Source of the DNA: Candidatus Omnitrophota bacterium
GTDB lineage: Bacteria; Omnitrophota; Gorgyraeia; 1-14-0-20-64-10
Length of the DNA: 64,000 nt
Assembly: GCA_023248155.1 (NCBI GenBank)
Contig: JAHFFE010000004.1
Span: 4,248 to 68,247 of the forward strand
Direction: 5' to 3'
The position numbers and the translations under genes were made by a program. The notes under the pieces were generated by a model. It was not told the origin of the DNA, did not search any database, and saw only the letters and a list, made by a program, of their open reading frames with translations. This document shows positions 18,001 to 42,000 of the stretch, one piece after another. Every line of letters begins with the position of its first letter. The stretch's first letter is position 1.

Positions 18001-21000
18001 AGAATGACCGCAATTATTACTCCGTCATGCTGGCCGGCGACCGGTTGATTTTGGAAGCCGTGCGCAATAATGTGCGCAGCGTCCTGGCTGAAACGCAGCT
18101 TTCTGAGGCCACGCAGAATGAATCGCGCTATTACTTGGAAGTTTCCGCCATGGGCACCGAACTTCATGTGCGTTTAAACGGCCGTGACATGCTGACGGCA
18201 ACCGATGACAGTTTTGCTGCCGGTAAAATTGCCCTGCAGAGCACGGACTCCTACGTGAAATTTTCAAATCTGGCGCTGGATGCGGATGCAGACCTGGAGT
18301 ATTTGAGAACCACGCACATGCTCAAGACCGATCTTACGGGTGATGGCATCGTCAATAGCGCGGATGAGAACCTGCTGGCGGCGATTCAAGCGCTTGGACT
18401 CACCGACTTGAATTTGGACGGAAACGTGGATGCGGCGGACCGCAACTTGCTGCGCCTGAGCGCGTTTGCGGATTTTGACGGCGACACCCAGCTGGAACTT
18501 GAAGATTTGGATGCCGCAAATCTGCTGGTGCTGGATGGCGACGGCAACGGCCTTATGGACGGCCGCGACCTGACCGTGGTGGACGGCTACGTGCATCTGG
18601 CCGATCAAATTCAGTACGAAGTCTTTTCGATTCTGGATCGTGCGGATGTGGACGGATCGACCAAGGCCGAGATGGCGGATCTGACCAAGGCCACCCTGAT
18701 GGTCTGGCGCTATTTTGATTTTAACGGCGTTGATGGAGTTGACACGGATGACTGGGAGCGCTTGAAGATCGTGATCGCGGCCCGCCGCTTGTTCCCGAAT
18801 ACGGTCGTGATCGAAGACCTGATCAAGAAAATTGATTTTAATAAAAATGGCCGAGTCGATGATGCCGACAAAGCCCAGCTGGCGGATAACATCCGGGATT
18901 TTAACCTCGTCGATGTGAACCAGGACGGCATCATCAACGATAAAGACGTCAAGGCGGTCCAGGCCATTGTGGACACGATTTTATATATTCAGGAACTGAA
19001 TCCGTCTTCGATTATTTCTGAAGACCTTACCGGTGACGGCCTGATCGATATGCGGGATGTCAAGGAGGCGCTGGCGTTTCTGAATACGCTGGTGGACCGC
19101 AGCCCTCAAGACGGCATCGCCGATGCCTCAGCCATGGATGCCTTGCTGGAAGACTTGAAATCGATTGCGCTTTTCCAGCCGCCGCCCGAGGTCTGGGAGG
19201 CCGCGGATCTCAACAATGACCATCAAGTCGATATCGCCGATATCCAGATTTTCCTCAGCCGGCTGACAAGCTATGTTTTTACCGACCTCAATGATAACCA
19301 GCAGGTGACCAAGCAAGACCTTGAAATTGCGCGCACCTTGATTAATTACGTCAATCAATCGGTGCGCTATAGCGCCCGCCAGCTTGTGCTGGCGGATCTG
19401 GACGCCAGCGGCCAAGTGGATGCGGCCGATGCGCAGATCGCCGATGCGTTCCGCGATATCGACGGCAGCGGAACGGTCGAAGAACGTGACCGGCTGCTGG
19501 CGCAATACCTGGTCTTCCGCAGCCGGACTGATCTGGATGGCGACGGTGTGTTTGCGGCGAGCGACCGCGCGCTGGTGCGCTCGATGCTCGGCGCCCAATC
19601 ACTTGTGCAGTTCGGTACGCAAGCCACTCAATCGACGGCGCTCGAGCCGCTGGGCAATAACCTGATCGCCCAGGCGGCCGGCAGCCACTTTACCTACCGC
19701 TTTGAGATCACCGAAAGCGGTCTCTATGACGTCGGCGTTTCATTGAAGGCCTACGATAAAGTCGTGGCTGCGGGCTATGAATATCCGGTGGATGTTTATG
19801 TGGATGGTGAAAAGAAGGGCGAAATCCGCGTGGCCGGATCGAGCGTGGAATTTAACAGCGCCTCGCTCAAGCTGGAACTTCCCAAGGGGCCGCATCTGGT
19901 GAAGTTTGTGACGCGCACGCCGTCTGCGGATAATCACAAGATTCAGATGCACGAAGCGTTTGCACGCGCTGCCGCGGACTTAAATCAGGACGGCCTTGTG
20001 GACGTCAACGATGTCACGCTGATCGAGATGATTGCCGGCCGTTCGCTGGCAAGTGCCAAAGCCGATGTGACCGGCGAAGGCGCGGTGGACAATGCTGATG
20101 TGACTAAAATTCAGGAAATGACCGCGCAGTTCGCGCAGGCTTCACTGGCTCTGACCTATACGGATGCCGAAGGTCAAGTCCGGACGCTGGACAAGAACGG
20201 CGTTCTTGGCGCCCTGGCCTCCTTCGAAGGACTTAAACTCGATGGCGCGGATCTCAAAGTGCTGGAAACCTGGCGCGAGAATTTCAATACCAGCCTGGAA
20301 ACCAGTTTGTTGTCGCTTAACTCCCAGGCCCGCATTGAAGACGGCCGTCTTCAACTGTCGGCGCCGGCGGTGCCGGGCACGGCGGCCAAAGCGGAGTTCG
20401 GGTTTGCGGATTGGAAGACCGCAGGGGTTGAAACGCAGGTGCGGCTCGGTGGCGCCGGTACGGCGGAACGGTCGGCGGGCGTGATTCTGCGCGTTCAGGA
20501 TGAAAACAATTTTGTGCGCGTGCGTATCGTGCGCACCGGCGCGAGCCGCGACGCGCTGCGCGTTGAAAAAATTACCAACGGGGCTGTCACGCTGCTGTTG
20601 CCTGAGGTCCTGCTGGGCGCCGAAGTGCTGACCGATCCGTTCTACGGGTTGAAAGTTGAATTGGGCGCCGACACACTCAAAGTTTTTGTCAACGGCGCGC
20701 TGAAAGCGGAAAAAACAGGGTTAGGCGAGCCGGTTCAGGGCCGTTTGGCACTTTTTGCCGCCAACACCGAGGCGTCGTTCGATTCGCTGAGTGTGACGGC
20801 GGACATCCGCTTTGCGGATCTCGGCCCGGGCCTGCTTGTCCGCGATTTGGATAAAGACGGCAAACTCACGGCTTCCGACGATGCCATCCGCGCCGCGCTG
20901 ACTGCGTTCATGCAGGAAAATCAAAATACGGAATTTTTGCTGAATCTGGGCCGCGCGGATATCAATGCGGACGGCCGGTTAAATACGGAAGATGCCCAGC

Positions 21001-24000
21001 TGGTCAGCGACCGGATCAATGAAACGACGATTCGCGCCCGCGTGGACTTAAACAATGATAGCGTGCTGGAAGGAGCCGAGGCGCAGCGAATTGCGCAGGC
21101 CATCCGCGGCATGCAGGACGTCAACGAACAAAACGGCATTACTTCCGCGGATGCGGATCTGATCAAACAGATGGCGGCGCTGTCGCTCTTCCGCGACATT
21201 CCGGCCGGGGATTTAAACCGCGACGGCCTGGCCGGCAATCTGGATGCGGAGGAAATCAGGAAGTTTCTGGATTCGCTCTACCGCGGCTTGAATGTCTCAA
21301 GTCAGGAGCAGGCGCTGGCCGACGTCAATCAGGACGGCGTGGTCAACTATGTGGATATCGGCCTGCTGCTCAAGGCCAATACGCTTTATTTGCGCAGTGA
21401 CATTAACGGCGATGCTTCCGTCGATGAATTGGATCTTCTGCGTATGGACGGCATTTTGGAAGCGCTTTTCTCCGACGAATTGATCAACCGTGAAATCATC
21501 GCGCGCGCAGACCTGACGGGCGCGGATATCAATGCCGACGGCGTGGGCGACAAGGACGGTTTTATCCGTGCGGAGGATGAAGCCCTGTTTGCGAAATCGC
21601 TGGCGCTGTGGCGCGATCTTTCCGGGGACGGCAAGGTCGATGACAAGGACATCGCGTTGATTCAGCAGGGCCTGGATTTTCTGGCCAAGACCGGCGGCAT
21701 TTTACCCTCAGTTTCCAATTTTAACGGCGCGATGGTGGCGGCCGCGCTCAGACAGCTTAACGCGATAACTTACCGCGAAAAATCCCAGCGGCTTTTAACG
21801 GCCATGCTGTCGGAGCAAAACTTCGAGACCGATACCACGGGCTGGAGCTTTGACACCACCGGCTCCTGGCGCCGGATTGCCGGCCAACTGGTGCAGGAAA
21901 AAGCCATTACGCAGGAAATGACGAAAGCGACGATGGCCGGTACGGTCGAGAATTTCAATCTGAGCGTCAACTTCCGTTTTGACGGCACGAGCGGCCAGCC
22001 CGGCCGCGGCGGGTTTATTTTCAGGCTGGATCCTGTGACCGGCGATCATTACGACATTCTGGTAGACGGCGGCGTTTTCACTCTGCGCAAATTTACGGGC
22101 GGGAAGTATCAAAATCTGGCCACGCATGCGATTCAAGCCGACGAGGATTTCCATACGCTGGTTCTGCGCGCACACGAAGACAAGATTGAGGCTGTTTTGG
22201 ATGGCAGTGAAATTCTCTTCAAGATTCAGGATGGCGATCTGGAACGCGGCGGCCTGCAGATGTTTACCGGCCGCGGCACGATTGGCCGGTTTGAATCGGT
22301 GCGCGTCGACAACGTGGCCTTTCCGCCTGTCCAGGCCGGCTTGGCGCTCTTGGAACCGGTCGCGATGGAACAAAGCGTTGAAGACTTTGTCCTTGAAGCG
22401 GATCTGACGCTGGACGGCAGCCAGGTACCGCCCGTGATGACCGGGATGCCGCAGCCCAACGAAGGCCGCCAGGCCGGCGTCTTGTTTGCCTCGGCGGCCG
22501 ATGGTTCCGGATACCGCCTCAATTTCCGGCCCGACAGCGGCAAGATCGAACTTTACCGGCTGCAGGACAGCCAGGCGGAACGCTTGGGCTACGGCGTGAT
22601 TCCGGTCAGCGGCTGGGATAAACCGTATCATCTGGAAATCAAGCGCTCCGGCGGCCTGATCCGCGTTTTCGTCAACCACATGGAACTGATCAGCGTGGAT
22701 GACAGAGTTTTGGGCGGCGGGACGCTCAGTTTCTTTAGTGAAAATCAGACCGGCCTTGCGGCGGCCAACGTCCAACTGCGCAAAATGACGGCCTTTGACG
22801 ACATCGCCCGCAGCCTTTCGCTGAGCAAGGATTTGACCGGCGACGGCACCGTCAACGGCACGGATTACATGGTGCTGGCGGACCTGAATTCGGTGGTGAT
22901 CTCTGATTACAACGGCGACAAGATCCTGGATGAGCGCGATGCCGGCCTGTTCATGGCCCTGGCTTCCGGCCGGCTGGATGTCAACGGCGATCTTGCGCTG
23001 ACGCCGCAGGATTCCAGCGACTATGCCGACGCTTACCGGGGCCATGTGGACATTGATCAGGACGGCTTTGTCGACGCCCAGGATTTAGCGCGCCTGCAGT
23101 TTTTACGCCAGACGATCCGGGATTTCGGTGCGGCCGCGACGCCGCAGACTTTCTCGATGACGGATCTGCAAAAAGCCAATATCAATCAGGACAAGAGCGG
23201 GGCCGTCAACCAGGCGGATCTGTTCCTGCTGACCTCGGCCCACAATCTGATTACCAAACTGGTCTCCGCGCCTCTGATGTTTGACCTGCCGAGTTACCGG
23301 GCGATGACGGCTGAAGCCAAAGCGCAGTATGTGGCTGATTTTAACGAGGCCAAGAAAACGCACTACACAGCGGAGCAAATATCCTTTGCCGACGAAATCG
23401 ACTGGCGCGGCGACGTCAATGGCAGCGGGCTTACCGATCAAACGGACTTTGACTTGCTGCGTACGATCATTACGCTGACCCACACGGGCGCGGACGTCAA
23501 CAAGCTAAAACATGCGGACATCAACCGCGACGGCACGATCGATGCGGCCGATGTGGATTTTTACCGCAGTCTGCTGCCGGATCGAGTCGATGTGGATGAA
23601 AATGGTGTGGTCAATCATGACGACTATCTGGCCGTGCGCCAGGCCTACTTTCGCAGTGTGCTGGCCGATCTCAATGGCGACGGCTCGGTCGACGGTTTTG
23701 ATTTAGACAGCCTGCAGAACCTGCTGGGTCTGAAGGACGTCCGCATAGACGCGCTCAAGGCCTCCGACTGGCAGGGACGCGTCTCGGGCAGCGGTTTTGC
23801 CATGAGCGGCTCGGAAGCGGTGGCGGAGTCCGATGCCTGGATTGAATTTCCGCTGGCGATTGCCAACCGCGGCACGTATGACGTGGGTCTGGATGTGATT
23901 AATTTCGAAAAATTTGACCTGCCGGCGGGCTATCACTACCACTTTGAAGTCGAAATCAACGGCGCGCACGCGGGGGATATTTATCTGCCGGCATCGGCCG

Positions 24001-27000
24001 AAGCCTATCAGCGCGCGGCCCTGACGCTTAAACTCGACCCGGCCAATTACAAAGTACGGTTCAAATGGGTCAATGACGACGGCCGGCCCGAGACTGGGGT
24101 GCGCATCCGCACGATGTTTGCCGACCATCTCTTTGATACGGACAAAGACGGCATTGTCAGTGCCGCGGATCTGGCCCAGATCGAAGCCGCGATCCGGCTT
24201 TCGATGGCGGTCAAGGCCGGCGACCTGAACGGCGACACGGTCACCGACGGCGGTGATCTGACTTATTTTGATTCGCATCTGACGCAGGCGGCCACCGACT
24301 TTGACCGCGACGGCACGCCCGGAGAAACGGAAGATAAAGCCCTGCTGGCCCAGGTTGTGCACTATGCGCGCATGGCCGTGCGCGCCGATATTGACGGCAA
24401 CGGCCTGTTGAATATGGAAGATGCTTTCCGCATTGACCGGGCCTTGAGTTTTTCCAAGGACATTGACCTGGCTGCGCTGGACAAAATTGTGAGCTACTAC
24501 ACCAAGCAAGGTGAATTCGCCAAATCCGACGTCAACAAGCCGTTGCAGGCCAATCAGCCCAGCGATATTAATTACGGTCTTGATTTCAACAATATGCTGG
24601 TCAATCTTACGGATAAATGGGACAAAATCGAAAAAACCGAAGACAATACCAAAGAAGACGCCGGCATTTACCACATTTTCGAACTGCTGGCGCTGGGCGA
24701 CGTGACCACGATTATGGCCGTGCGCATGCTCGACCTGGACCTCAACGAAATGGTCCGCGATCAGGTGCTTTACAGCGCGGATGCGAACTTTGATTCGGTG
24801 CAGGGCATTGCGGCGGCGCTCGAAGCCACGCAGAACCGTGATTATTTCCTTTTGACCACGGCCGCGGATTTGGAACTGACGCCCATGCTGCTCAAGATGC
24901 TCGATACCAACCGCGACGGTATTTTTGATGTGCGCGACCTGCCGGAAGGCATCTCTTACCGCCAGTTGGAACGCTTTGACGTCAATCAAACCGACACGCT
25001 GTCCTACCTGGACCGCGATGTGCTGGCCAGCCGCAACGAAGAGAACGGCCAGTGGAACGGCGTCCTGGGCGACAGCCGCCTGACCGGCGCTTATTTCTTC
25101 CTCAACCGCATTCAGGAACAGATCCGCGAAAACTCCGATCTTACCGGCGACGGCCTGATTGATTTTAACGATGCCAATGCGCTGGCGCGCGCCATGGGGC
25201 TGTTCCTCGGCGACCGCGATGCCGACGGCATTACCGATATCGATGAAACGGCGCTCGGGCTGGCCGGTGATTTGGATGGCGACGGACTGCAGGGCTTGAT
25301 CGATCCGGATTCGGACAATGATGGCTTCTCGGACGGCGAAGAACTGGCGCGCGGTTTTGATCCCAAGAGCCGCGATTCGTATCCGCAGGCCGTGCTGGCC
25401 GATTCCGACGGCGACGGGATTGCGGATATCAGCGATGCGAACCGTACGGAAGCCGATGCGGATCATGACGGCTTCTCCGACGGCTGGGAAACAGCGCGGG
25501 GCACGAATCCTTTGGATGCGGCCAGCCGGCCGGTCAAGATCGTGACCGATCCGGATTCCGACGGTGACGGCCTGACGGATGCGGCCGAAAGCGCGCTGGG
25601 AACTTCCGCTGAAAATGCCGACACGGACGGCGACGGTTTTTCGGATAACGAAGAAAAACTATTGAATACGAATCCGATGGACCGCGATTCCAAACCGGCG
25701 CCGAAAGCCGATGACCGCGATGGCGACGGCATCAAGGATGCGGATGAGACTGCGGCGGGAACGGACCTGGACAAGGCGGACTCCGATGGTGACGGCTTCT
25801 CGGATGCGGAAGAAAAGCGTCTGAAGACCAACCCGCTGTTGTCATCGTCGCGGCCGGCGGCCCAAATGCGCGATACGGACGGCGACGGCGTTTCGGATAC
25901 GCAGGAGAGCGAATACGGCACGAACATCTCATCCGTGGACAGCGATCAAGACGGTTTTTGTGATGCCGAGGAAATTGCGCGGGGTTCAAGTCCGGTCTCT
26001 GCTGCGTCCAAGCCGGCCCGGACCTTTGCCGATTCGGACGGCGACGGCATTGCCGATTTGGTCGAAACGTCGCTCAGAGCCGATTTTAGCCTCGACGGAA
26101 TTCTGAATGAGCGCGATTTGGATCTCTTCAAGGTAAAAATGGCCGCGGCGGCAGCACTTACGGAGGCCGAGAAGGCCGTTTATGATCTCAACGGCGATGC
26201 GCTGCTGGATGCTAAGGATATGGCCATTTTCGCCGACATGCGCGCGCTGCTGGCGGAAAGCGAGTTTGGCCGGCCGCTGGCACTCGATCCGCTCAAAGCC
26301 GATACGGATGGCGACGGTTTCAGCGATTGGGAAGAATTGAATCGCGGGACGGATGCGGCGAATGCAGCCAAGTATCCGGTCTCGACCAAGGCGGACATTG
26401 ATGGCAGCGGCACGGTCAATGAACTTGATCTGCAGACCCTCGATCGCCTGACGCGCATGCTGACCGGCGCTGATTTCAACGGGGATCAGCTTTATGATCA
26501 AGAAGATGTGAAGGATCTGCGCGAGCTTTTCGGCGCCCAGTCGCTCAAATTGAAAGCCGTGGAGCGCAAGACCGGCAGTAATTTTACGGTTCAGGGCGAA
26601 ACGCTGGTGGCCGCCCGCCCGCCGCAGACGCCGGTCTGGGATGTGCGCGCGTCCTATGACGTGGAAACTTTCGGCGGCCTGTATCAAGTCGGCCTGTCGG
26701 CGCGCAGTTTTGACGCGATCAACCTGCCGCAGAGCGGTTACTACGAATTTGACGTCTTCGTTGACGGCGCATCGCGCGGCACGGTCACTATGCGCGCCAG
26801 CAACCTGCAATACAACACCGAGACGATTGAACTTAATTTGGGCGCCGGCATCCACAACATCGAATTCCGCTGGACGAATAACGGGGCTTACGCGCGCTCC
26901 TACGGCGAACGCGAATGGGAATATCTCGAGAACCGCAACAAAGAAATCCTGCCGTCCGTGCAGATCAAGGACATTGTGCTCAGGAGTTCGAATTTTGACG

Positions 27001-30000
27001 AGCGGGCGGACTTCAATCACGACAACCGCATTGATAAACTCGACGAACGCGTTCTGCAATCCACGCTGCGCGACCGCGACTATTACCGCTTGAGCGATCT
27101 GGATCAGGACGGCAAAGTGACGGCCGCGGATCTGGCGATTTATCAAAGCCTGCCGGAACGTTCGAGCACGCTGGCGGCCCAGGAGATGACGTTTGGCGGC
27201 CAGGTCTACCGCCTGCGTTATGACAAAAAGAATGCAGGCTGGCTGTTTGAAGACTCCACGGGCGGCGTGACGCGCTCTTACCGCGAGGATTTATACGGCA
27301 GCCGTAATTTCGTGGACATTCAGGGCGTGAAGTACCTGATTCTCGATCCGAATCCCGTGACCGGCATTTTCCGGATTGTGCGCGACCGCGACGGTGATAT
27401 TGACAAAGATGGCGTGATTGATGCGGCCGATGAAGCGGACATGCGCGCGGCCGCGGTCTTTCCGCGTGAACTCAAGGAAGGCGTGGATTTCCTGCGGCGC
27501 TCCGGAAGCTGGACGCTCGATGAGACTTCGGTCAAGACAAGTCAATCCGGCGCGGCGATCGATTACCGTTTTGACGTGCCGACGGCGGGTGACTACGAAA
27601 TCGGCCTGCGCGCTCTCAACGGCGCAGGCATAGCCGAAGGTTATCAATTTAAACTCAATATGTTTGTCGACGGCGAGTTCACGGAAACCCTGCAGGTGGA
27701 TGCCGGCGACCCGGCCAAGGATTACGGTGCTTACCAGAATCTGAATGCGGGCCTGGTCAATACGGCCGTGCTTGCGGATCTGATCGCCAATCCTGCGGAT
27801 GCGGCGGCGGTTTATGCCGACATCGCGGGCTGGAGAGTTTTCTATGATACGGGCAAAGCCCGCCTGGCCGCGCAAATGAAAGACGGGCGCGTAGGCCGTC
27901 TGATGGAATTCAAACACGATAACGCCGGCGCGGTCATTGCCGCTGATGTTTATGATCTCGGACAATCGCAGCCGGTGCTGGATACGCTGGCGGCTTACTG
28001 GAGTCTGGAACGCGGCCGCATCATTGCGCGCGATGCGCAGCTGGTTTCGCGCGTGTTTATGGCCAGTGGCAGTGCCATCGGCGCGGCCGATGTCAATGCG
28101 GACGGCCTGGTCAACCGCATTTACCGCGAGAGCGCGGGAATCCGGGATACGTACACGCTTGCGGCCGAACTTGCGCTGAGCGACAGCTTAAGCGCTTACG
28201 CCGGGGCGACGGCGCGCACGGCCCGGGCCTGGCTGGCCGCCGACGGCAGCGTGCGCGGCAGTACCAGTCTGAATGCCTCAGGTCTTGTGACCAGCCTGGC
28301 CCTGGATTATCCGGAAGCCGGTTATCAAGACCGCTACACGTTTAAAACGCCGGCGGCGCTGGGAACAGACATGGCGGGTTATCTTGGCGCCGGCGGTATT
28401 CCTGCGGCCGGGACGGCCCTTCTGACCGGCCGCACTTTCCGTAAAAATGGCCGGCCGTTTGTGGATCTGACCGTCAATAAAGACGGCCAGGCCATCGGCC
28501 TCGCCGCGCTGGTGACGGATGACGCCGGGAATATTTATTCCAGCGACCGCTATCGTTTTGCCGGCGCTTTGAACTTGACGGCGAATTATTTGGAATATTG
28601 GAATGACGCCGGCAATGCGCCGGTGCCTCAAAATGCCGAGTTGTGGTCGCGCCAATATTATGACGACGGCCTGCCCTGGATGGGCGTGGGGATTGCGGGC
28701 GGCCAGGCCGTTTCCGTGGACCGCTATCAAGCAGGCCTGTATGGCCAGGTGGCGGAGTCCTATCATTACGCTTTGAGCGAAGCCTCAACGCTTGCGGCGG
28801 ATCCGGCGTCCTATTGGAATTTCAATGCCGGCCGTCCGGCGGACGCGAGCGCCAAAAATTCCGCACGCCGGGCCTATGATGAAGACGGGGAATTGCTCTA
28901 TCAGGAGGTTTTCGCCTCCGCCGCGCTGGGCGCGGGCACGCGCGACGTGCGCTTTGTCTGGGCCAACCCGGTGTCGGCCAATGCCGAACTGGTGTTGAAA
29001 AAGGCCTTTCTGCGCGGCGCGGAAAAACGCACGGACCTCAATCAGGACGGATTTACCGACCGCGCCGATCTCGCCTTGTTCCTTAAAGACAGCGCGCTCG
29101 CGGGCCGGGTCGATACCGTCACGCTTGAAAATACGAACTTCCGCATCCTGCACCGTATGGACGGCACCTTTACGGTGACGGGCGGCACGCAAACCGTGGA
29201 AAGCGATGCCTCGGGCCGGTTTGTCACGCTGAAGATCGGCACTCAGGACAAAGCCTATATTCTGCAGAAAGATCCGGCGGATTCCCAGGGCGTCAAGATG
29301 CGTTTGGCGGAAAATGTCCGGACGGACACGGATAAAGACGGCTTTGTCGATGCCAAGGACCTGGCGCTCATGCGCCATGTGATCAGCGCTCCGCCGGTCG
29401 CGCTTAATGCAGTTGAGGCGCAGAGTTGGGAGCAAGGCAGCGTTTATGAAATGGACATCAGCGAACGCGGCGACTATGCGCTTGGTCTTTCCTACCAGCG
29501 CGATAGCAATGCCAGCGCGACCGGTACGGCCAAGTTCCAGATTTATTTAGACGGCACGTATGCGGGGCTGGTGGAGTTTTCGCATGCTCCCGCCACGCTG
29601 CAGACGGCCGGGCTGGCATTGCCCATGGGACCCGGCCGCCACCGCATCCAGATCTTCGGTTCGGAAACCGCGGATTATGGCATGGGCCCGGTGGTTTCCG
29701 GAACAGCCGCGCTGCAGGAACGCTGGATTTTTGACCGCCGCGGCGATCTGGATGGCAATCATCGCGTCACATACGAGGACTTTACCGTTTTTGCCAATGA
29801 GTTTGGCTCGTCCGCGCTGGTCTATCCGCTTGCGGCCCATAACTTCCCGGGAACGGGCAGCCGCCGCGTGTTTGTGCTCGACAACTTGGACGGCAGTTTC
29901 ACGGTTTCTGACGGGCAGAAAAACTGGATTTCAGCCAAAGACGGCAAGCTTGTATTCATCGAAGACGGGGCCGGCAAGCTGCAGGATTATATTTTGCAGG

Positions 30001-33000
30001 TCGATGCGGCTGCGCGCGAAGCGCGTTTGACGGAGCGTTTGCCGGAAGATCTCAATTATGACGGAACGGTGAACAGCGCTGACCGCACGGTGATGGAAGG
30101 CTACCTTGATCAAACTTATCTGGACCGTGCGGGTACGGATTTCAAGACGATCGATGCCGGCTGGCGCTATGTGAAAAGCGGCGTGATGGGCACGGCCGGC
30201 TCCAACAGCCTGACCTATGAATTCACGCTGGACGATGAACGCGATTACCTGGCCGGCGCTTTGGTCGGCGTGACCGGAACCCTGCCGGCGGACAAGAAAA
30301 TCAAAGTCGAACTCAGCCTCGATCCTTCCGGTATTCGCCAGACTGTGGAATTGACGCCGGATGCTTCCGGTCTGATCAATCTGCCGGCGCGCCTGAACAC
30401 GCATCTGGATCCGGGCACCTATCAACTGCGCGTGCGCTGGCTGAATTCAGTTGATTTCCCGGGTGCGGAGTTCCGCGTCAGCCAGGCCTTCGTGCGCGAC
30501 GGCGCGATTCCGGATTCTGCCGACTTGGACAAAAACGGCATTTTTAATTTTGACGATTACCACCGTTATCTGGATGAAGTGCCGGAAACTGCGCCGCAGG
30601 CTCTGAATGTGGGCGGGGCAGTTTATCATGTCGCGCGCACGCCAAAAGAGCCGGCCGCTTTCACCTTTACGGACATTCAGACCGGCCAGCGCATTCGCAC
30701 GGAGCCCGGCATGCGCGAAGTCAAACTTCTCCTCATGGACTACGCGATTCAGGAAACAGAAGGGGGCTTGATCCGCCTGGCCCAAATCAAGACGAGCGAT
30801 TTTAACCATGACGGCCTGGCCGATTTGGCCGACCGCCAGCTTTTTACCGCTAACCTGGCCCTTTTTACGGCGGAAAAAGCGGCCATGGATTATGCGCGCA
30901 AAGACGGCAGTTTTGCCGGTCAGGATCCCTGGGCCACCTCCGACGGCTTGAACCTGCGGACGTCCGTGGAACGCTCCGTGACGTATGCCTTTGACGTGCC
31001 GCAAGCCGGACGCTATGTGTTTGGCGCCAGCGGCGGAAATTTCTCCGCGGACGGAAGTTCCACTCTCGCGGATTCCGGCTACCAATTCCGTTTAGCCGTT
31101 GAAATCAACGGCCAGAAAAAAGGCGAAATCCGCCTGGATGCCGGCGGCACAATCCTTGGAGAAACCCCGCTGGATCTTACGCAAGGCTCCAATAACATCA
31201 CGCTGCGCTGGATCAATAAAGCCGAGGCGGGCGCGCCGGCAACCCTGAAGCTGAACCGGGTTTTTGTGCGCGCTGAGGCGCAGGATAGGCGTTTGGACTG
31301 GAACCGGGACGGTCTTGTGAGTTTGAGCGACGCAGACAGCGCGATACCGCAAAATATGCAGACGCTCTACCTGAGCGCGCAGAAGACCTGGAAGATTATC
31401 CAGCCCGTCGTGCCGGGAGCTCCGGTGGTTTTTTACAGCGGGACTGAACGGGTCGCCAGCGACGCGGACGGAAAATTTGTCACGCTGGACAATGTCCTTT
31501 ATGCGCTCAAGTATTATCCGGCGGAAGGGGTTTATACCGTCGAAGAAATTAAAGCAGGCGATCTGGATCGTGACGGTAAGACCGATTCGAATGATTACAG
31601 CGCGCTGCTGGCTGAAACACAGAAATTTTCACAGACGTTGAAGGGGACGGACTTTGACACCAAGGATACGGCCTTCCGTCTGCAGGGGGCCGGTGCGATT
31701 GTCAGTTCGAAAAATGCTTCCGCGCGTTACAGCGTCACGGTGCCTGAGGCGGGCTGGTACGAGATTGAACTGGACGGCGGCGCGTCCGATGCCGGCCAGG
31801 ACTTCTTTGCTTTCCACGTGGGTCTGGATGTCAACAATGCCGGCAGCGGAGAATATCATCTTGCGGCCGGGGCTTATAAGCCGGAACTAGGCCGCCGTAT
31901 TCTGCGCGTGCACTTGAATCAAGGCCGTAACCTGCTCGATTTTGACTGGACCAATTCGGCGGAGGCGGCGGGCCGGAATTTTGTGATCCGGTCCGTGGCG
32001 GTGCGTGCCGCGGCAGTGCAGGATCCGTTTGATTTAAATCACGACGGCTCGGTCACGCTGGCGGACGCTTCCCGCTGGCTGGAACTGAACCCGGAGGAAC
32101 GCGATTATCACAGCTTATCCGTCAACGGCGTGGCTTATACCGCGCGCCGTACTCCGGAGGGCGCGCTGGCCTTCCGTAAAAATCTGACGAACGTGGCCAC
32201 CTATGTCAAACCCGGCCAGGACGAAGTGATTCTGGAAGACAAAACCTGGCTGATTTTCAGCGACAGCCAGACGGGGGACATCAGCCTGCGCGAAAAACTG
32301 AACGGCGATATCAACCGCGACGGCCGCGTCAGCGCCGAAGATCTGGACGCGCTCAACGAAATGGCGGCCCGGGAATCCGTGCGTCTGCTGGCGCGCGATT
32401 ATGACGTCAAGGGGCCGGACTGGGTCATGACGCCCGAAGGCCGGCTCGTCAGCGAGAAAAATACCAGCATTACGTATGAATTCAACGTGGAAACCGACGG
32501 CTGGTATGACGCCGCTCTGGTTTACCGCAATACGGTGCCTATGGATTGGTACCGTTTCTTTCTGAACGTGCGCGTGGACGGCGCTTCGCCCGAAGCGCTG
32601 CGCGTTCCGAGTGCCGCGGCCTTTAATGAAACCGGCAGCCATGTTTATCTGACAGCCGGCCGTCACCGCGTCCAGTATGAGTGGATCAATGAAGGGGATT
32701 CAAATACCGATCTAGCCGCAGCCGCGGCAAACGTGGAGTTGACCGGGCCGGCTGCGCTCGAAGTCGACGGATTTATCCTGCGTCCGGCGGCCATGCCCCG
32801 GACTGCGGATTTGACCGGCGATGGCATTGTCGACGTTCAGGATGTGATCCGCTGGAAACTGCTCAATCCGGACAGCGCCTTCTTGCAGGCGTTGGAAGTT
32901 GGCGGCAAGCGTTACGAGGTTGAAAAATTGGCGAATGGCCGGTTTTTATTTTTTGATACGGCGGCGAATCAAACAACATCCAGTGAAACTGGCCGCCGGC

Positions 33001-36000
33001 GCGTGACGCTGGAAGGCCAGCCCTATGTCATTGTGGATGCAGCTGGCGGACTCGTGCAGCTGGTAACGCAGGATCCGGCGGATGTCAATCTGGATGGCGT
33101 TGTGAGCGCTGCCGACCGGGAATACGTTGATCGTCAGGCCGGCTATTATGGCGAACGTCTCAGCGGTCAGAATTATCTGACGCAAGACGGCGGCTGGACC
33201 CATGATGCCTACGGCAGCATGCTCAGCGGGACGCAGAGCATGCCGGGCAGCAGCAGCGCGATTCGCTATCGCTTTGATGTGCCGGCCACCGGCTACTACG
33301 ATCTCGGGCTTGTGATCCAAAGCGCCCTGCCGGAAGCCGCCGCGGCCGATAATCGTTTCTTTATCAATGCCACCGAAGGCGGAGAAGAACTCGGTCAATG
33401 GCGGTTTGACGCGGGTGCCTCCGGCCCGCAGACAAGAACCTTGCGAGTTTATCTTGAAAAGGGCCTGCGCGATCTGCAGTTTGCGCTTGAGAATCCGGCA
33501 GAAGCCGGTTCGGCCAACCGCTGGAAAATCCAGGAAATTTACCTGCGTGACCGCCGGTTTGATATATCGCTCGACCTCAATCAAAACCATTTGATCGATC
33601 AGGGTGATCGCGAGGCTTATCAGCGCAGCACCGGTTTCAGCGGAGAAATCGCAGCCGTGGATCTGGCGGGCGCGAAATATGCCGTGATCAAACTGCCGGG
33701 TGATCTTTATGAACTGCGGCCGTATGCCGGCGGCGCCGTGCGGCGCACGTCCGCAGACCACCGCGTGCTGATCGAGAACAGAGAATATATTCTTTTTGAA
33801 GTCAAAGAGGGCGCGGCCAAGGGGCAGGTCTATTTGACCGAACACGCGCCGGCCGATGTCAATCTGGACGGCCAGGTCAATGCGGGCGACCTCGAAATCA
33901 TGGACCGCTTGGCAGACCGCGCCCAGGCCCGCTTCAGCGCGCTGGAATACGCCAGTCTTGACGGCAGTATGTCCATCCCGGCAGCCGGCCAGGAGGAACA
34001 CGGCTGGAAGATCGGGGCGGGTTATACCACGCTTATCGCACAAAATGAAAATGCCGCCTTGGGCTTTGACTTTACGGCTGACCAGGCGGACACGTATGCC
34101 GTGGGCCTGAGTCTGCGCGATGCTTCGAACTTTGACATGCCGGCGGATTATCAATTTGCCTTGGAAGTGCTGGTGGATAACACCCATACCACGACCGTCA
34201 GCGCGCACCTAAATCGCAGCGGTTTTATCCAATTGGATACGAATGTGAAAATGGCTGCGGGGGATCATACGATCAAATTCCGCTGGGCCAATCCGGTGGA
34301 AAATACGCTGCGCCCGGCGCTGGAATTCGGCGATGTGCTGATCCGGCCCGCCGGTCTGGGGGTAGCCCCTGATTTTACGGGCGACGGCCTGGTGACGGAT
34401 GCGGACGTTGACGCGTTCCAGCGGCGGTTTGCAGATGCTTCGGCTTATCAGAAAATCCAGCTTGCGGGCGTGACGTATGCGGTCCTGCGCCATCCGGACG
34501 GCACGACCACCTTTATCTCCGGCCAGAACCGTGTGCGTTCTTCGGCGGATGCGTTCGTCACCCTGGGCGGCGTGGTCTACCATGTGGTGACGGATTCCGA
34601 AGGCCGCATTATTCTCGGCGAAAAACCCGCGGGGGATGTGAATCAGGATGCGCTGGTCAATTCCAGTGATGCCGCGTTTATTTACAGTCAGTTCGGCCGT
34701 CAAAACGCCGAGGCGGATCTGAACCGCGACGGCCGGGTGAACATGGCGGATCTGCTGCCGATTCTGCCGCAGGCCGGCGATACGCGGTTTGCCAGCGTGT
34801 TGACGCTCGACGGCCAGCAGACGCTGGTCTATCCGGAAGCGGACGGCCGCATTGCGGTGCAAAAAGGTGCGGAGTATGCCGTCAGTGACAGCACGAATAC
34901 CTGGGTGCAGGTAGACGGCAAGAAATACTGGATTCAAAAAGACAGCGCGCAGAATTGGAAACTTGTTGAGTTTACCGCCGGCGACGGCACGCATGACGGC
35001 ACGGTCGATAACGCGGATCGCAATCTGCTAGCCGCGCGGCTTGGCCAGCAAGCCCTGCAAAATTTCATGGCCGGCCAAACCACCGAAATGAACGGCTTTG
35101 CGGCCGCGGGCACAACGCTCAAAGCCATCGTGGCCGATCAGGCCAATTACCAGAATACCAATTATTTTTATGCGGATTTTGCGCCTGTAACCGGCGGTGC
35201 GCGTTATGACATTCAGATCAACGGCGCTTCGCCCGCCGATGCGTCACTGCCGCCGGAAGGTTATGCCTACCAGTTCAGCGTTTACGTGGAGAACACCCAG
35301 ACGCCGGCAGGCCAATTGACCCTGCCGCTTTCGGCGTCCGCAAGCATTTCCGGTAAACTCGAATTGGATTTAACCAGCCTGCCGCTTGCCGCGCACAAAC
35401 TGCGGCTGGTTTGGACCAATCCGATCTATAATCAAAATCCGGCTCAGCCGAAGTACGGCCTGCAGATTACCAGCGTGCAGGTCCGTTCCCAAGCGTATGA
35501 CGCGCTGCTTGATTTGGATCCGGACGGCATTCTGACCACGGCGGATCTGGCGATATGGGATGCGATTCCTGCGGCCAGCCGGCAGGGGCGCGTTTCGGTG
35601 CCAGCGCCGTCTGCCTGGACGGAAACCGGTGCGGCCCGGGCCTTGCTTCTGGCCACGCCGCTGAAAGTCAGCGGAACTTCGGCGTGGACGAGTGCCGGCC
35701 AATTCGCGCCGCTGAGCGGCAGCTGGCAGTATGACGGTCTGCGCATGAAGTCCACGGCCACGGCCCAGCAAGATCTGCCTGCGGCCGTCAACCAGCTGGC
35801 GGCGGCTGGGCAAGTGCCTCTTAATTTTGATCTGGAAGGCCGCCTGCAATGGGATTGGAGCACCGGCGCGGCCAAAGCCGGATTCTATGTGCGCTACCTG
35901 GATGCAAATAATCTGCTCAAAGTGGAATTGGACCGCACGTCCGGCCGCCTGGCCTTGATCAGCATTGCTGCCGGCAAGAGCCGCGAAATTTCCACGGTCA

Positions 36001-39000
36001 CGCTGGAGGACGGCATTGACTTCGGCCATATCTATGACTTAAAGATTGCCGCGCGCGGGGATGTCTATACGGTCCTGCTGGATGGCGTGGAGCAGCTGCA
36101 CGCGCGCGTTGAAGGGCCGGCGAGCGGCGCGGCCGCCATTTTTGCCGACGATGCGGCGATCAATTTTGACGGCCTCACGCTGACGTCGTATGCCGCGCAG
36201 GCCATGGACCTCTATGTCGTCCGCAAGAGCGGGGACCGTTTTATGTTTGAGCATGCGAGTGACGCGGAGCGCAACGCCGAGTCGGACCCCGCGAAGAATA
36301 CGGTCACGCTTGACGGCCGGGTTTTCCGTCTGCAGGACGGCCGGCCCGCGGCCGGGCTTTTGGCCGTATCCGTTGAGCCCAAAGCTTCCGCGCGCGTGCC
36401 GGGCATGCTGCTGGAAACGCGCGATACACTTTATGACGTGGAACGCAGTGAAGCCGGGGTTTATACGTTTACGGATACGGCCGGCATTGAAGCGCCGGTT
36501 TCGAGCACGCTTGAAAATAATGCTCCGGTGGCCGTGCTGAACGACCGCAAATTTAACATTCTAAGTTTAACTCCGGACACGCTCCGGCTGGTGCCGGTGG
36601 TGATCCAGGCGCCGTCGGTGACTCAGGACAAACTGGTCAGCGTGCAGGGCGTGGTTTACCAGGTCAACGCGATTGAGAACAATCAGTTCCGCCTGACGCA
36701 AATCGACACCGGCGCCGTGCAGGAAACAGTGCAGGGCCAGGTCAGCTTGAACGGCATCGTCTTTACGGTCCGCTCTGAAAACGGAATCATCCGGATTGTC
36801 CGGCCCGTGCTGACAAGCACGGCGTCTGCGGGGCAGATGATTCATGCGGCCGGCGGCTGGTATGAGGTTACTTATGACGCGGGGGCAGACCGTTATCATT
36901 TTGCGCGCCAGGACGGGCTGAGCGCTGACTCCAATGCCTTTGACGGCACGGTGGTCTTGGACGGCCGGCTGTATGAAATCCGCGTGCTGGACCCGGCCGG
37001 CCATATCCGCCTGCTGGCTAAAGGCTCTGCGGCCGGTGAGACGGCAGCGCATCGTGTTCTTCTGAATAACAGACTGTTCGAAATTAAAAAGCAGGGCAGT
37101 CAGTTTATTCTGACCAATACGGTCAATGCGGCGGAACACTACGAATCGCAAAACGGCCGTGTGACGGTGACGGATATTGCCTATGACATTACGACGGATG
37201 CCGCGGGATCCGTCATCCTGCGCCAAGCCAGCGCGGGGGCGATCGCCTCAGGCGAGGCCGTTATTCGTCTGGCGGACGGGGAGTATTTCTACACGCTGGA
37301 ATCCGGCCGTTGGCGTTTGCGCCATAAGGCGAGCGGCGCCGAGTATCTGGAAACGGCCGCGGGCCAGATTACAATCGAAACGGCAGTCTATGAAACGGAC
37401 CACAGCGCGCCGGAGACGCATTATCCGCGTCTGCGTTTTGCGCCGGTGCTGAGTACGGCGGCGGATGCGGGATCTTGGACGCCGCCGGTCAAAACTCCGC
37501 GCGTCATCGGGCCAGCGGCCAGCGGCACCAAGACACTGTTCGCTTACGGCAGATATTATGATGTGCGCGCTGAAGGCGATGAATTTGTCTTCACTGACGT
37601 GTTGACGCCGGCCACAACGTTTACCAGCGTCAACCGCCGGATCACTCAAATCGGCAGCCGTGAGCTGGCGGTGGAAGCAGGTTCGGATGGTTCAATCACG
37701 CTGCTCATGCCGCGCAAAACTTCTGAAGCGGTCAGCGTCCAATCCGTGGAAGTCTATGATCCGGCCGCAGGCAAAGGCCGGGTTTGGGATTACACGCGCT
37801 CAGGCAGCGTATTTACATTTACGTCCCAGGACAGCGCGGACGCGCTCAGCAGTGCGGACGGCAAGCAAGTAGTTCTGAGCGGGCGGACGTATGACATCAG
37901 CCTGATTAATGAAGCCTCGCTGTCCATTCAATTGTCGCTGGCCGCTGTTGAGGCCCAGCGGAACTTTGACCAGGTGATTCAAGCCGGCGGCGCGGAATAC
38001 AAAGTCAAAGCATTGTTTGCAAATGGCATCCCTACAGGCCATTACCAGTTCTTTGATGCCGCGGGTGTTCTGGCGGCTGCGACGTTCGCGGACATCGATC
38101 GTCCGGGCGAATTCCGCGTCACTCTAGACGGAGTGACCTATGAAATCAGCCATGATCCACTGACGCGTGATCTGGTGCTGGAACGCCTGCGCGCGCGCAG
38201 CCGTCCGCTGAATGACGACACGATCCTGATTTATACGGACAATCCTGAGAACGGCGTACGCTACCAGGTGAGTGCGGCCGCCGGCGGCGTTTATGTCTTC
38301 CGCAACGAAACCAGCGGCGTGGAATTCCGCAGCCTGGCGGACGGGCTGAGCGTGGTGATTGACGGGAAACTTTATACGATTCAAACCGGACGCACGCCGG
38401 TGCTTGTGACCGAAAAATCGCCTGCCGATATCACCGGCGACGGCCTGATGGACGGCCGTGATCGCCTGGCACTTGAAGACATGGCCGCCGAGCAGGCGTT
38501 TATCGATCGTGCCGACATTACGCAGGACGGCAAGGTCGATCGCGCCGACTACCGGCTGTTTGCCGGCAGCAAGGATGCCTTCCGCGACGTCAACGCGGAC
38601 GGATCGGTCAACAAGCAGGACTTGCAGGACCTGAATTTGGCCGCGGAGTATGCGCGCAACACCTACCGCCAGAATAAGGCGCTGGAATTTGATTCGGTGG
38701 TCAATCCATTCTACAGCGGCATGGCCTCGCAGCCCGCTTGGCTTTCCACATGGCTGTCGCGCTATCTGCCGGAATTTGATTCGCAAAAACTGGGCAACGG
38801 CCGCATTGAAATCGATGACGTGGTTGAATTCAAGCAGGCCTACCGCATGCTGGAATATCTGGACGATCTTGACGGCAGCGGCGCGGTGGATGAGGGCGAT
38901 CTTCAATATATCCGTGACCTCATGGGGCTTTTTAATCTGCTTAAAAAATACCGCGAAAATAATTCAGAACTGATGCCCAAGGCGCTGGTGGATAACTTCA

Positions 39001-42000
39001 ACATGAATAACGGCGATGTGGACCGGGACGGCTTTGTCACTGAGAAAGACAAGGCCCTGCTGCTGCAAAGCTTCCAGAATTATCTCAATTATGACTTTGT
39101 GGGCAATGACCGCGACGTCAATATCGCCGATGTCAAATACATTGACTCGGTCGTCAAACTGATTTTCCCGGCCAACCAGGCGCTCGAAGGCCGCCGCGCC
39201 GCGGATACGTTCAAGACCCAGGAAGGTTTCAGCACGGCCGGCCTGGTTCCCGGCAGCATCGGCGCCGGCACGCAGGGCGCTGCCGTGACCTATACGTTTG
39301 CCGTCACCGAACCCGGCGATTATTTTACGGGCCTTGCACTGCGGCCGGTTCCGGGAGAGTTCTTCGACCCGTCTTTTGTTTACCGCATCGAAGTTTCGGT
39401 GGACGGCCAATTTAAAAACTTCATCGACATTCCGGCCGTGGAATCCCGCCGCTTTGAAGAAGGCCGGCTGGCCCTGCACTTTGCGGATCAGGAGCCGGGG
39501 ACTCATGAAATCAGTTTTAAATTTGTCAATATTGACGCGCGCATGAGCGTGGAAGTGGGCAGTGTTTACCTGAATCAAAATGGGCTGGACCTGACGGGCG
39601 CGGATGTCAACGAGGACGGCCGGGTCTGGGTCGATGACGCAGACGCCTTGGATGCGCTGATTCTGGAGTTGGACCGCAACGGGGATAAACTTTTGAGCCA
39701 GGCGGATTCCGCGGCCCAGACCGAAGCCTCGCGCGCGCGTCTGCTGACGGCCCTGCGGCGTTTTGATTACGACCGCGACGGCGAGGTTACGCGCACCAAG
39801 GACGTCAAGGAAGTGCGCGAAATCGGCTGGTGGTATGTGAATGAAAAAATGCTGACGCCGTCGACCAACCGCCGCGAGGAATACCGCTACGGCGCGTCCA
39901 CGCCGGCGGCGCAATATGCCTGGGATTTCGCCATCGACGGCCAGCGGGACGGCCGCATTGACAGCAAAGACTTGCAGAAGCTGGTCGAAGCCGCGCGCGC
40001 CAAGGATTTAACAGATGACGGGCATGTGGGTCCGGAAGATCTGGTAAAACTCAACCGCCTCAAGACCTTCCTGGAACTGGACCTGCATGCGGCGGAATTA
40101 CGGCGTGCCAATGTCAATCACGATAATACCTTCAGCGTCTGGACCGGCTTTTCTAAAGACACCACGGCCGGCTCGCTTGAGTCGCTGACGCTGGCGGGCG
40201 TGGATTTCAGCGGGCACATTGACCCGATGCGCGGTGAAATTGTACTCGAACAAAAACATGCCGAGGCTTTGCTGCCCCCGGGCACGACCGTGCGTTTTGA
40301 CAATACCTATTATGCCGTGCGTCGAGGCGCTGACGGTCAGTTCATTCTCTGGACCGGCGCTCAGCCCGAGATCCATACGGAAGGCGCGCGTCATGAGGCT
40401 GTCATTAATGGCGTGCGCTATGCGATTGATCAGGATGTCGTGACAGGCCGGTATTTATTTGAGCCCGCGGCCAAAACCAGCCTGCCAGCCGGGGATTTTA
40501 TGATGCGCCTGGACGGAGAAGACTTTGCCGTGACGCTGAATGAACTGACCGGCGCCTACCGCTGGGCGAGCGGCGTTGATATCTATGAAAGCGATCCGGT
40601 AACCAGTACGGTTCGGATCCACGGCGCGGCCTATAAGATCCGGATAGCCGATGCCCAGAGCCGTCAAATTTTCCTGGAACGCTTCAGTGTTCCGGACGAA
40701 ACTGCGCAGCCGGCAAGCGTGCATGCCGCGGATCAAACCCTGCTGCTCGGGGGTACCAAGTTGACGCTCAGCCGTTTGGCGGATGGCCGCATCTTGTTCT
40801 CGGACGGCGCCAAAACCTATCTTTCGGATGCGCTGGCCAGCCGGGTCGTGATCGGGACCGGTACGTATGACATTCTGCCGGATGCCGCGAAAGATTGGAA
40901 AGTGATGCTTATGCCGGTGCCGCAGGTGAGTTCGCTGGAAGCGGCACAGGTGATTGAAATTGTTACGGAGTATCCGCCGCTGAGCGTGCACAGCGGCCGG
41001 CGCTATCTGGTGACGGGCGCGGCGGGCAGTCATATTTTCCGCGACGGCGAAAATCAATTGCGCTCAAAGATGGTCAATGGCCTTGAAATTCTGGAGACGC
41101 CTGAGAACCGCTACCAGGTCACGACCGCGGCCAACGGCGATGCGGCCCTGAGCGTGATTTTGCCGGATGACGCCGAGCTGGTGATTCCTTCCTATAGCGT
41201 GACGGCGGCCGACGGCGCCTTGAAACTGGGCGGGGACGTTTTTGAATGGGTTGAAAATCCGGCCGGGGAACCCGCGGGTTCGCTCAAACTCATGCGCGGA
41301 CTATGGTCGGCGGTGATCAAACCGGCGGATTCCAGCGTGCAGATTCTGGATAAAACTTATCTGGTCAGCCGGAACGAATACGGCTGGCCTGTGCTGACGC
41401 AAAGCCTGCCGCAAGCCGCAGCGGGCGCCGATCAAGTCATTGAAATCGGGCGTGCGCGTTATGAAGTGAGCCGTTCGGGCGATGAGATGACGTTTACGGC
41501 TGGCGCTATGACTTACACCCGTGTCGACGGAACGGTCACGCTGGAGGATGGCGTAATTTACCAGGTTGACGAAACTCAGACGGGCCGCGTGCAGTTGACG
41601 CCTGTGGCCGTGCCGGCGCTCATACAAATCCGGTCAACCGCCGATCAGCGCCTGAGCGTCGGCGCTTTGACCTACGAATTGCGCCGTACGCCGGCCGGCG
41701 CGCTTGAATTTTATCGCGAAGGCCTGCTGGCCGGCGCGGCTGCGGCGGGAGCCGCTTCGGTGACGCTGGATGGGACGGCGTATAAAATTGCGGTTCAGGA
41801 CACCGCGCGCAGTCTGGTGCGTCTTGAAGCCCTGAGCGCCTCGGCTGAGACCGTGGGCGCGGATGCGATTTTTGTCAATGGGCACTACTATACCGTTGCC
41901 ATCGACGAAGCCACGGGCCGCGTGACGCTGGACGACGGGCGTTTCCGCGTACAGTCGTCGCCGGTCAAGACCCAGACGGGCGAGCGCGTCATTCATTTAG

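Follow-up and report, generated by a model that had tools for sequence, protein, structure and literature searches.

A repeat array of dockerins, CBM6/CBM35-like beta-sandwiches and hairpin linkers in a giant protein of a Candidatus Omnitrophota bacterium

The giant proteins of Omnitrophota have been proposed to serve in attaching to the walls of other cells and in degrading them. To our knowledge, none of their parts has yet been studied by biochemistry. One class, the "Dockerin-type giant proteins", contains many dockerin/EF-hand and TSP3 repeats, and C39 peptidase-like domains are found in one of them (West-Roberts et al. 2023, bioRxiv 10.1101/2023.11.21.568195). In CAILPI010000004_73, an unannotated region of ~2500 amino acids (aa) is built of beta-barrel repeats that structurally match carbohydrate-binding module family 35 (CBM35) best. 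In its AlphaFold2 (AF2) models, the helices flanking the CBM35-like barrel together resemble a dockerin (bioRxiv 10.1101/2023.11.21.568195). An architecture cluster with dockerin and TSP3 has also been recovered in new Omnitrophota genomes (2026 preprint). Here, we analysed a stretch of 64,000 nucleotides (nt) from a Candidatus Omnitrophota bacterium (assembly GCA_023248155.1, contig JAHFFE010000004.1, positions 4,248 to 68,247 of the forward strand), which is called the window below. It is occupied by one giant gene, and this report concerns the array of repeats at 29.4–35.5 kb, the most regular stretch of the giant protein.

Domain organisation of the repeat unit

The natural unit of the array is a dockerin half, a beta-sandwich and the other dockerin half, followed by a hairpin linker; one super-repeat corresponds to ~255 aa (Table 1). 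The initial annotation, made from the nucleotide sequence, described eight consecutive super-repeats of ~780 nt, each composed of a sandwich, a Ca loop, Y-rich hairpins and another Ca loop. The number and the period agree with our results: eight modules are seen at 29.4–35.5 kb with successive spacings of 759, 768, 744, 747, 792, 792 and 1116 nt. The last spacing is longer than the regular ~770 nt because an extra dockerin and a second hairpin domain are present there. The proposed order, however, is replaced by a dockerin with a nested sandwich plus a hairpin linker, based on a natural indel, the AF2 model and the unit profile.

The indel is seen in comparison with the nearest relative, P0001. 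Between the seventh and eighth modules, P0001 contains an extra sandwich (aa 1591–1719; flanks aa 1555–1742) between two F-hands. The window shows a clean 131-residue gap at this site, and its F-hands are adjacent: DVNQDALVNSSDAAFIYSQFGRQ-NAEADLNRDGRVNMADLLPIL. Since the adjacent F-hands match the Dockerin_1 profile at near full length, the F-hands that flank a sandwich in the units together make up a single dockerin, one half each. The alignment thus places the sandwich, as an insertion, in the linker between the two dockerin segments. The indel can be either a gain or a loss of the sandwich.

Dockerin_1 was detected in both halves of the array region (Pfam E 3.2e-10 and 2.4e-18), with two F-hands as in PF00404. 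A dockerin is a contiguous domain of ~60–70 aa, but in the repeat units the F-hands are split by the sandwich of ~130 aa, and the segments are adjacent only at the site lacking a sandwich (aa 11545–11592). Ca loops flank the module on both sides in 14 of the 18 window modules, as well as in 61 modules of 39 other proteins. The composite unit (187 aa) was predicted as one compact body, with a predicted template modelling score (pTM) of 0.84 and a predicted local distance difference test score (pLDDT) of ~90, with 85–96 at both ends. When the unit profile was compared with the PDB, both termini matched solved dockerins (top 2y3n_B, 2.1e-8) and the middle matched CBM35/6. The model scores, the indel and the published AF2 models suggest that the flanking helices pair as a dockerin. 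Hidden Markov models (HMMs) made here for the first- and second-half dockerin segments were uninformative, as the halves resemble each other too closely and TSP3 repeats had entered the training set. The question of the halves was settled by the orthologue indel, not by these half-specific HMMs.

The "Y-hairpins" turned out to be a beta domain of ~58 aa that occurs 64 times in the window (E 1e-9 to 4e-19). The copies are distributed over nt 27186–63410 on the plus strand, singly or in long tandem arrays, often with a period of ~70 aa (e.g., aa 12070–12795, 13430–14779, 17131–17636 and 18374–18850). This domain may be what was predicted in the preprint as an "antiparallel beta-helix with external paired beta sheets". 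A DUF1080/ConA-like domain, guessed from the sequence at aa ~11,900–12,060, was rejected, with no match in Pfam.

Upstream, three less regular units of the same type directly precede the regular array, starting at ~26.4 kb. A module with a degenerate C-terminal half (aa 9159–9284) is followed by ~260 unassigned aa with short "G-x-x-x-x-Y/L" repeats (nt 27855–28640, plus strand; aa ~9285–9545), where the Dockerin_1 match is weak (E 0.0017) and nothing else matched. In eight other large proteins (P0027, P0028, P0033, P0036, P0057, P0062, P0070 and P0074), the sandwich is flanked by TSP3-type repeats with the pattern D-x-D-x-D-G-L-x-D-x-E-E, not by F-hands. The module lineage may thus tend more generally to be nested between repeats that bind Ca.

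The giant gene itself lies in frame +3, whose first codon is at nt 3, while the other five frames contain 157–1077 stops each. Minus-strand open reading frames (ORFs) of 150–950 aa are shadows of this frame. The giant protein is strongly acidic (D 10.4%, E 5.7%, net charge ~ -1400) and contains only nine Cys, eight of which form four close pairs (aa 216/221, 18932/18937, 19005/19009 and 19877/19882). Such an acidic, nearly Cys-free composition fits a Ca-binding secreted protein. The Pfam scan was performed on seven chunks of ~3 kaa (thousand aa), and the families in the window are limited to Dockerin_1, TSP3_bac, EF-hand_7 (EF-hand pairs) and one Peptidase_C39. Dockerin_1 appears in up to 15 stretches per chunk, with E down to 5.9e-129. 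The window has 188 matches to the Ca-loop pattern D-x-[NDST]-x-[DNS]-G-x5-[DE], whereas shuffled sequence gives an expectation of 1.5. C39 peptidase domains are known from Omnitrophota giants, and their proposed roles are polyprotein cleavage or secretion. Taken as a whole, it is highly probable that the window encodes part of a giant (>21,000 aa) protein of extracellular or surface type that belongs to the Dockerin-type giants reported from Omnitrophota, and that each ~255-aa super-repeat is a type-I-like dockerin with a ~130-aa CBM6/35-like insert and a ~58-aa six-stranded hairpin linker.

Table 1. Positions of the features of the giant protein in the window.
Feature	Position (nt)	Residues (aa)	Strand	Basis or remark
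Giant-gene fragment, open at both window ends	3..63998		+	21,332 codons, zero stops in frame
N-terminal dockerin F-hand (Ca loop + helix) before module 1	29325..29396		+	Ca-loop pattern, Pfam, unit profile
F-hands before modules 2–8	30048–30119, 30798–30869, 31560–31631, 32307–32378, 33081–33152, 33855–33926, 34983–35054		+	
C-terminal dockerin F-hand after module 1	29745..29816		+	Ca-loop pattern, Pfam, unit profile
F-hands after modules 2–8	30522–30593, 31296–31367, 32031–32102, 32808–32879, 33573–33644, 34371–34442, 35511–35582		+	
Beta-hairpin linker domain, ~58 aa	29856..30032		+	no Pfam family; six strands in AF2 model
Other hairpin domains in array	29118–29285, 30603–30779, 31377–31541, 32115–32291, 32892–33065, 33657–33839, 34455–34616, 34800–34964		+	
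Contiguous dockerin without CBM	34635..34778	11545–11592	+	Dockerin_1 profile 1–50/57; alignment indel vs P0001
Module 1 of regular array	29355..29756	9785–9918	+	without W-x-N motif; leave-one-out E 1e-10
Module 2	30129..30533	10043–10177	+	leave-one-out E 7e-14; orthologue 32%
Module 3	30900..31304	10300–10434	+	leave-one-out E 4e-24; AF2 model and Foldseek; orthologue 39%
Module 4	31641..32042	10547–10680	+	core of high-confidence AF2 model
Module 5	32391..32768	10797–10922	+	leave-one-out E 1e-19; orthologues 41–43%
Module 6	33165..33584	11055–11194	+	leave-one-out E 2e-18; orthologues 38–40%
Module 7	33978..34379	11326–11459	+	leave-one-out E 2e-21; orthologues 29–44%
Module 8	35070..35519	11690–11839	+	leave-one-out E 3e-13; orthologue 32%
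Upstream, less regular unit of array	26553..27020	8851–9006 (module)	+	iterated HMM, leave-one-out
Other upstream modules	27477–27854 (degenerate C-terminal half), 28644–29045		+	iterated HMM, leave-one-out
Dispersed module copies	16137..16514, 19614–19988, 23763–24146, 39198–39611		+	iterated HMM, leave-one-out
Dispersed module copies, continued	45246–45626, 61254–61700, 62769–63167, 63627–63848 (last is partial)		+	iterated HMM
Envelope starts of the 19 module copies	16167, 19647, 23793, 26580, 27510, 28737, 29403, 30162, 30930, 31674, 32421, 33213, 34005, 35121, 39246, 45279, 61308, 62802, 63627			iterated HMM
Peptidase_C39 domain	5040–5294	1680–1764	+	Pfam E 3.6e-14, profile 46–131/133
Bacterial TSP3 Ca-binding repeat arrays	~3.8–6.7 kb, 25.1–26.1 kb		+	Pfam E 5.4e-74, 4e-35; loop spacing 28–35 aa

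Relation to CBM6 and CBM35 and divergence of the modules

An HMM seeded with one candidate module and iterated to convergence returned 19 module copies in the window, with a core of ~110 aa and a module length of ~110–130 aa. At least 18 modules had been annotated before at nearly the same positions, and those at 27.5 and 28.7 kb are additional to that list. Leave-one-out profiles detect every module (E 1.4e-5 to 5.7e-29), and neither shuffled nor reversed sequence controls gave any profile match. The conserved columns, with their counts among 18 modules, are Y31 (14), G39 (14), Y41 (17), G44-L45 (14), F/Y61 (15), D68 (13), G69 (12), L93 (15), G96 (15), H98 (11), W104 (12) and N106 (14). These equal the motifs quoted at first: Y-x-F...GL, P-x-G-Y-x-F, V-D-G and W-x-N.

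In the PDB, the profile of 18 modules matched 5x7o (9.5e-6), the CBM35 2vzp (2.6e-3), the CBM35 of CITase (1.3e-2) and the CBM6 2cdo (3.2e-2). The sandwich part of the whole-unit profile matched 5x7o (1.9e-6) and 2cdo (2.2e-5). The AlphaFold model of a complete super-repeat, based on an 8-sequence alignment, has a pLDDT of 70. Its top 50 Foldseek matches are all CBM35, CBM6 or CBM36 (best E 1.9e-8, probability 1.0). The modules show a beta-jelly-roll fold superposable on solved CBM6/35/36 structures, and their sequence-profile similarity to members of these families is significant. Neither of the outcomes that would have overturned the initial annotation, a lack of profile matches or a fold other than a beta-sandwich, was seen. 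CBM6/CBM35 have a structural Ca2+ site near strands beta1 and beta11; in the modules, the N-terminal strand aligns poorly.

The modules had been described as classic CBM6/CBM35 modules. The beta-sandwich fold stands, with matches to CBM6/35 in both the PDB-profile and the Foldseek comparisons, but the family assignment does not: it weighs against it that none of the 18 modules alone passes the gathering threshold of Pfam CBM_6 (PF03422) or CBM_35 (PF16990). When the 18 were scanned singly against Pfam, the best CBM_6 match had E 0.13 and CBM_35 did not match; Golvesin_C, GH115_C and CBM60 matched weakly. GH115_C is the only one to reach its cut-off, when summed over a 3-kaa chunk (25.5 vs 24.1 bits). 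The relationship to CBM6 is transitive, since the module profile finds proteins that pass Pfam CBM_6. The exhaustive search of 1.84 billion representatives with this profile retrieved 2059 proteins (cluster representatives) at E <= 1e-3. P0017, a canonical protein with nine CBM_6 (Pfam 609 bits), was retrieved at 8.6e-41, and in P0007, P0022, P0012, P0013, P0021 and P0026 the aligned modules are above the CBM_6 gathering score. Word-indexed homologue searches with the module profile or the whole 2017-aa region gave no matches. These modules are a divergent CBM6/CBM35-like beta-sandwich subfamily, not classic CBM6/35.

The paralogous modules are 11–30% identical to one another, with a mean of 20%. 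At the DNA level, no similarity was seen among the units except one 24-nt match. Tandem Repeats Finder reported no tandem repeat in the window, at a maximum period of 500 nt and for units without DNA similarity. It was thus correctly annotated that the units are not recent identical duplications. P0001 is encoded on the contig L001 in ENA, and this contig is collinear with aa 6852–15479 of the window (8.6 kaa) at 35–47% protein identity. Orthologue modules in register (P0001, P0003 and P0038) are 29–44% identical to those of the window, while out-of-register pairs are ~20% identical; every orthologue module is closest to the window module of the same position. The higher identity in register indicates that the array existed unit for unit before the divergence of the lineages; it is old and, from these comparisons, its units have each been maintained. 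Among named sequences, those closest to the modules are proteins of Omnitrophota metagenome-assembled genomes (MAGs): MBI3312942.1, MBI3312941.1, MFA6609733.1, MBF0216762.1 and MDD5422017.1, 36–38% identical in register. Neither the GTDB species genomes nor the JGI metagenome contigs contain an exact 60-mer taken from the region, a scan of genome contigs with a protein pattern yielded no relative, and the window has no marker gene.

On L001 (55 kb), frame changes at 9590–9875 and 17521–17534 divide the giant gene into three gene calls (>7601, 2506 and >4868 aa). The equivalent places of the window are uninterrupted. The frame changes can be either an assembly or sequencing error or a real interruption.

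Glycan binding and alternative functions

In the proposed model, Ca2+ bound to the two F-hands of each unit would make the chain a stiff, elongated, "ladder-like" stalk. This stalk would display one beta-sandwich every ~255 residues, and the sandwiches would act as low-affinity multivalent contacts to a polysaccharide or glycoconjugate on another cell, in adhesion to prey or host. That the sandwiches bind glycans is a tentative proposal. A lectin function and a purely structural one are considered about equally likely.

Trp in region A and Asn in region C are the most conserved features of the CBM6/35 binding site (PMC9843283). Several observations weigh against a conserved canonical site for glycan binding. 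At the aligned loop, which is aligned approximately, the region A Trp is seen in none of the 18 window modules, and Tyr/Phe is present in about half of them. The region C Asn is seen at the aligned column in just 2–4 of the 18, with the same approximate loop alignment. The canonical CBM_6 modules of P0017 contain TT[WY]QT and GN-x-N-W motifs in the profile alignment, and the intermediate family (P0007 type) retains TT-x-[YF]-QTG and D-A-N-I. Among the conserved module positions, Y31, Y41, F61, V65/67, L93, F102 and W104 alternate along strands in a core-like manner, while G39, D68-G69 and G96-x-H98 are in tight turns. The conserved set is thus framework, and a conserved surface site was not found in it. 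The conservation between orthologues is also flat (32–43%): 37% for the sandwich, 43% for the N-terminal F-hand, 32% for the C-terminal F-hand, 33% for the hairpin and 39% for the linkers, which gives no sign of a special constraint on the sandwich loops. In the initial annotation, the divergence of the units was taken to suggest many non-identical glycan-binding sites on a lectin-like fibre, with the ligand-binding loop residues to be checked in a module alignment. That alignment shows a conserved strand framework, with the canonical Trp/Asn signature absent in most modules, and gives this proposal no support.

These features fit a purely structural extender, to which we give somewhat less than an even chance. 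In such a protein, the sandwiches would have lost sugar binding and would be only rigid spacers packed on the split dockerin, as its built-in cohesin-like partner, in a Ca-stiffened stalk projecting terminal domains like the extenders of RTX adhesins. The missing binding signature, the framework nature of the conserved residues and the uniform conservation across the parts of the repeat are consistent with it. So are the predicted compactness of the composite unit (pTM 0.84), the array remaining intact where one unit lost, or never gained, its sandwich, and the "dockerin/cohesin-like folded subunits" and ladder-like macrostructure of the preprint (West-Roberts et al. 2023). On the other side, the module lineage is elsewhere appended to enzymes and a pilin-like protein. 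The long-kept distinctness of the units can also be listed against an extender, though it is compatible with both functions.

The closest non-giant relatives combine the module with a GH123 catalytic domain, a GDSL esterase, a galactose-oxidase-like domain, an S8 protease or a type IV pilin-like N-terminus. Binding is the usual reading for modules appended to enzymes or pilin-like proteins. The pilin-like protein, P0136 (271 aa), resembles type IV pilins (N_methyl and ComP_DUS matches) and has one module at its C-terminus; its composition hints at an adhesive role for the module lineage. Glycan binding can still be argued for because of these relatives, and because BT0996-C, a CBM6/35-like module without either signature, binds polygalacturonate (pectate) (PMC9843283), which also speaks against a purely structural extender. 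It can further be speculated, though we regard it as unlikely, that the ~19 sandwiches are individually specialised non-canonical sites, distinct since before the split of the window and L001 lineages. They would form a Ca-stiffened "barcode" lectin rod reading the surface polymers of prey or host, and the insertion of a CBM in a dockerin would be a reusable evolutionary device that single units acquire or lose, as seen at aa 11545–11592.

A protein-docking scaffold is improbable. The split dockerins would recruit cohesin-bearing partners such as enzymes, like a cellulosome inside out, and the sandwich would tune or mask the interaction. The solved dockerins matched by both F-hands (top 2y3n_B, 2.1e-8) are cohesin-binding, and the same giant protein has many more ordinary dockerins. 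However, no cohesin was seen in the window, which contains this ORF only and in which no search aimed at cohesins was made, and we know of no cohesin partner for these dockerins. Dozens of dockerins per polypeptide is also the reverse of the stoichiometry of cellulosomes, where scaffoldins carry the cohesins. An artefact, whether misassembly of a repeat or an open frame that does not code, can be dismissed. Genes that are giant and repetitive do tend to collapse in assembly, and frame changes interrupt the orthologous contig. The window, however, is free of stops over 64 kb in one frame only, its units have no DNA similarity that might mislead an assembler, it has an orthologue that is collinear at the protein level, independent fragments exist in MAGs, and its domains are predicted to fold confidently.

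Comparison with known systems

Like the type I dockerins (PF00404) of cellulosomal enzymes, the dockerins of the window have two F-hand Ca loops with helices and significant profile matches. They differ in that their segments are mostly split by a ~130-aa domain and that very many copies are present in one polypeptide. CBM6, CBM35 and CBM36 of glycoside hydrolases (2vzp, 2w1w, 2cdo, 1ux7 and 7ay3) share their framework motifs with the window modules: the aG-x-Y strand, the V-D/N-G turn and the L-x-aG-x-H/N-x-I strand. In contrast to them, the window modules are below the Pfam thresholds, contain an extra P-x-G-Y-x-F segment and the W-x-N motif, and do not conserve the region A Trp and the region C Asn. 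While those modules are appended to enzymes, the window modules are nested in dockerins and occur at least 19 times within a single chain.

The extenders of giant RTX-type adhesins, such as the Marinomonas ice-binding adhesin, likewise string together many small beta domains with Ca sites in long tandem series, and are acidic and poor in Cys. They are thought to hold the binding region away from the cell. Their fold is Ig-like, whereas the window has a jelly-roll in a dockerin plus a hairpin domain; RTX nonapeptides were not seen in the window.

The closest system is that of the Dockerin-type giants of Omnitrophota. The window likewise encodes a giant ORF with Dockerin, EF-hand, bacterial TSP3 and C39 domains, and likewise repeats CBM35-like barrels with flanking dockerin-like helices. 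The closest sequences retrieved for the window are 35–47% identical. This architecture is therefore already described in the literature, and the window is not a new kind of system. What is added here is a sequence bridge from the "unannotated" barrels to CBM6, a natural indel by which the barrel is seen as an insertion in a dockerin, and the comparison of orthologues and paralogues by which the array is seen to be old and maintained unit by unit. The hairpin linker domain is added as a separate family of 64 copies, together with the reservation that the modules lack the classic residues for binding sugar. Small expressible pieces, the 187-aa composite unit (predicted pLDDT ~90) and the 58-aa linker domain, allow the adhesion hypothesis for these giant proteins to be tested directly.

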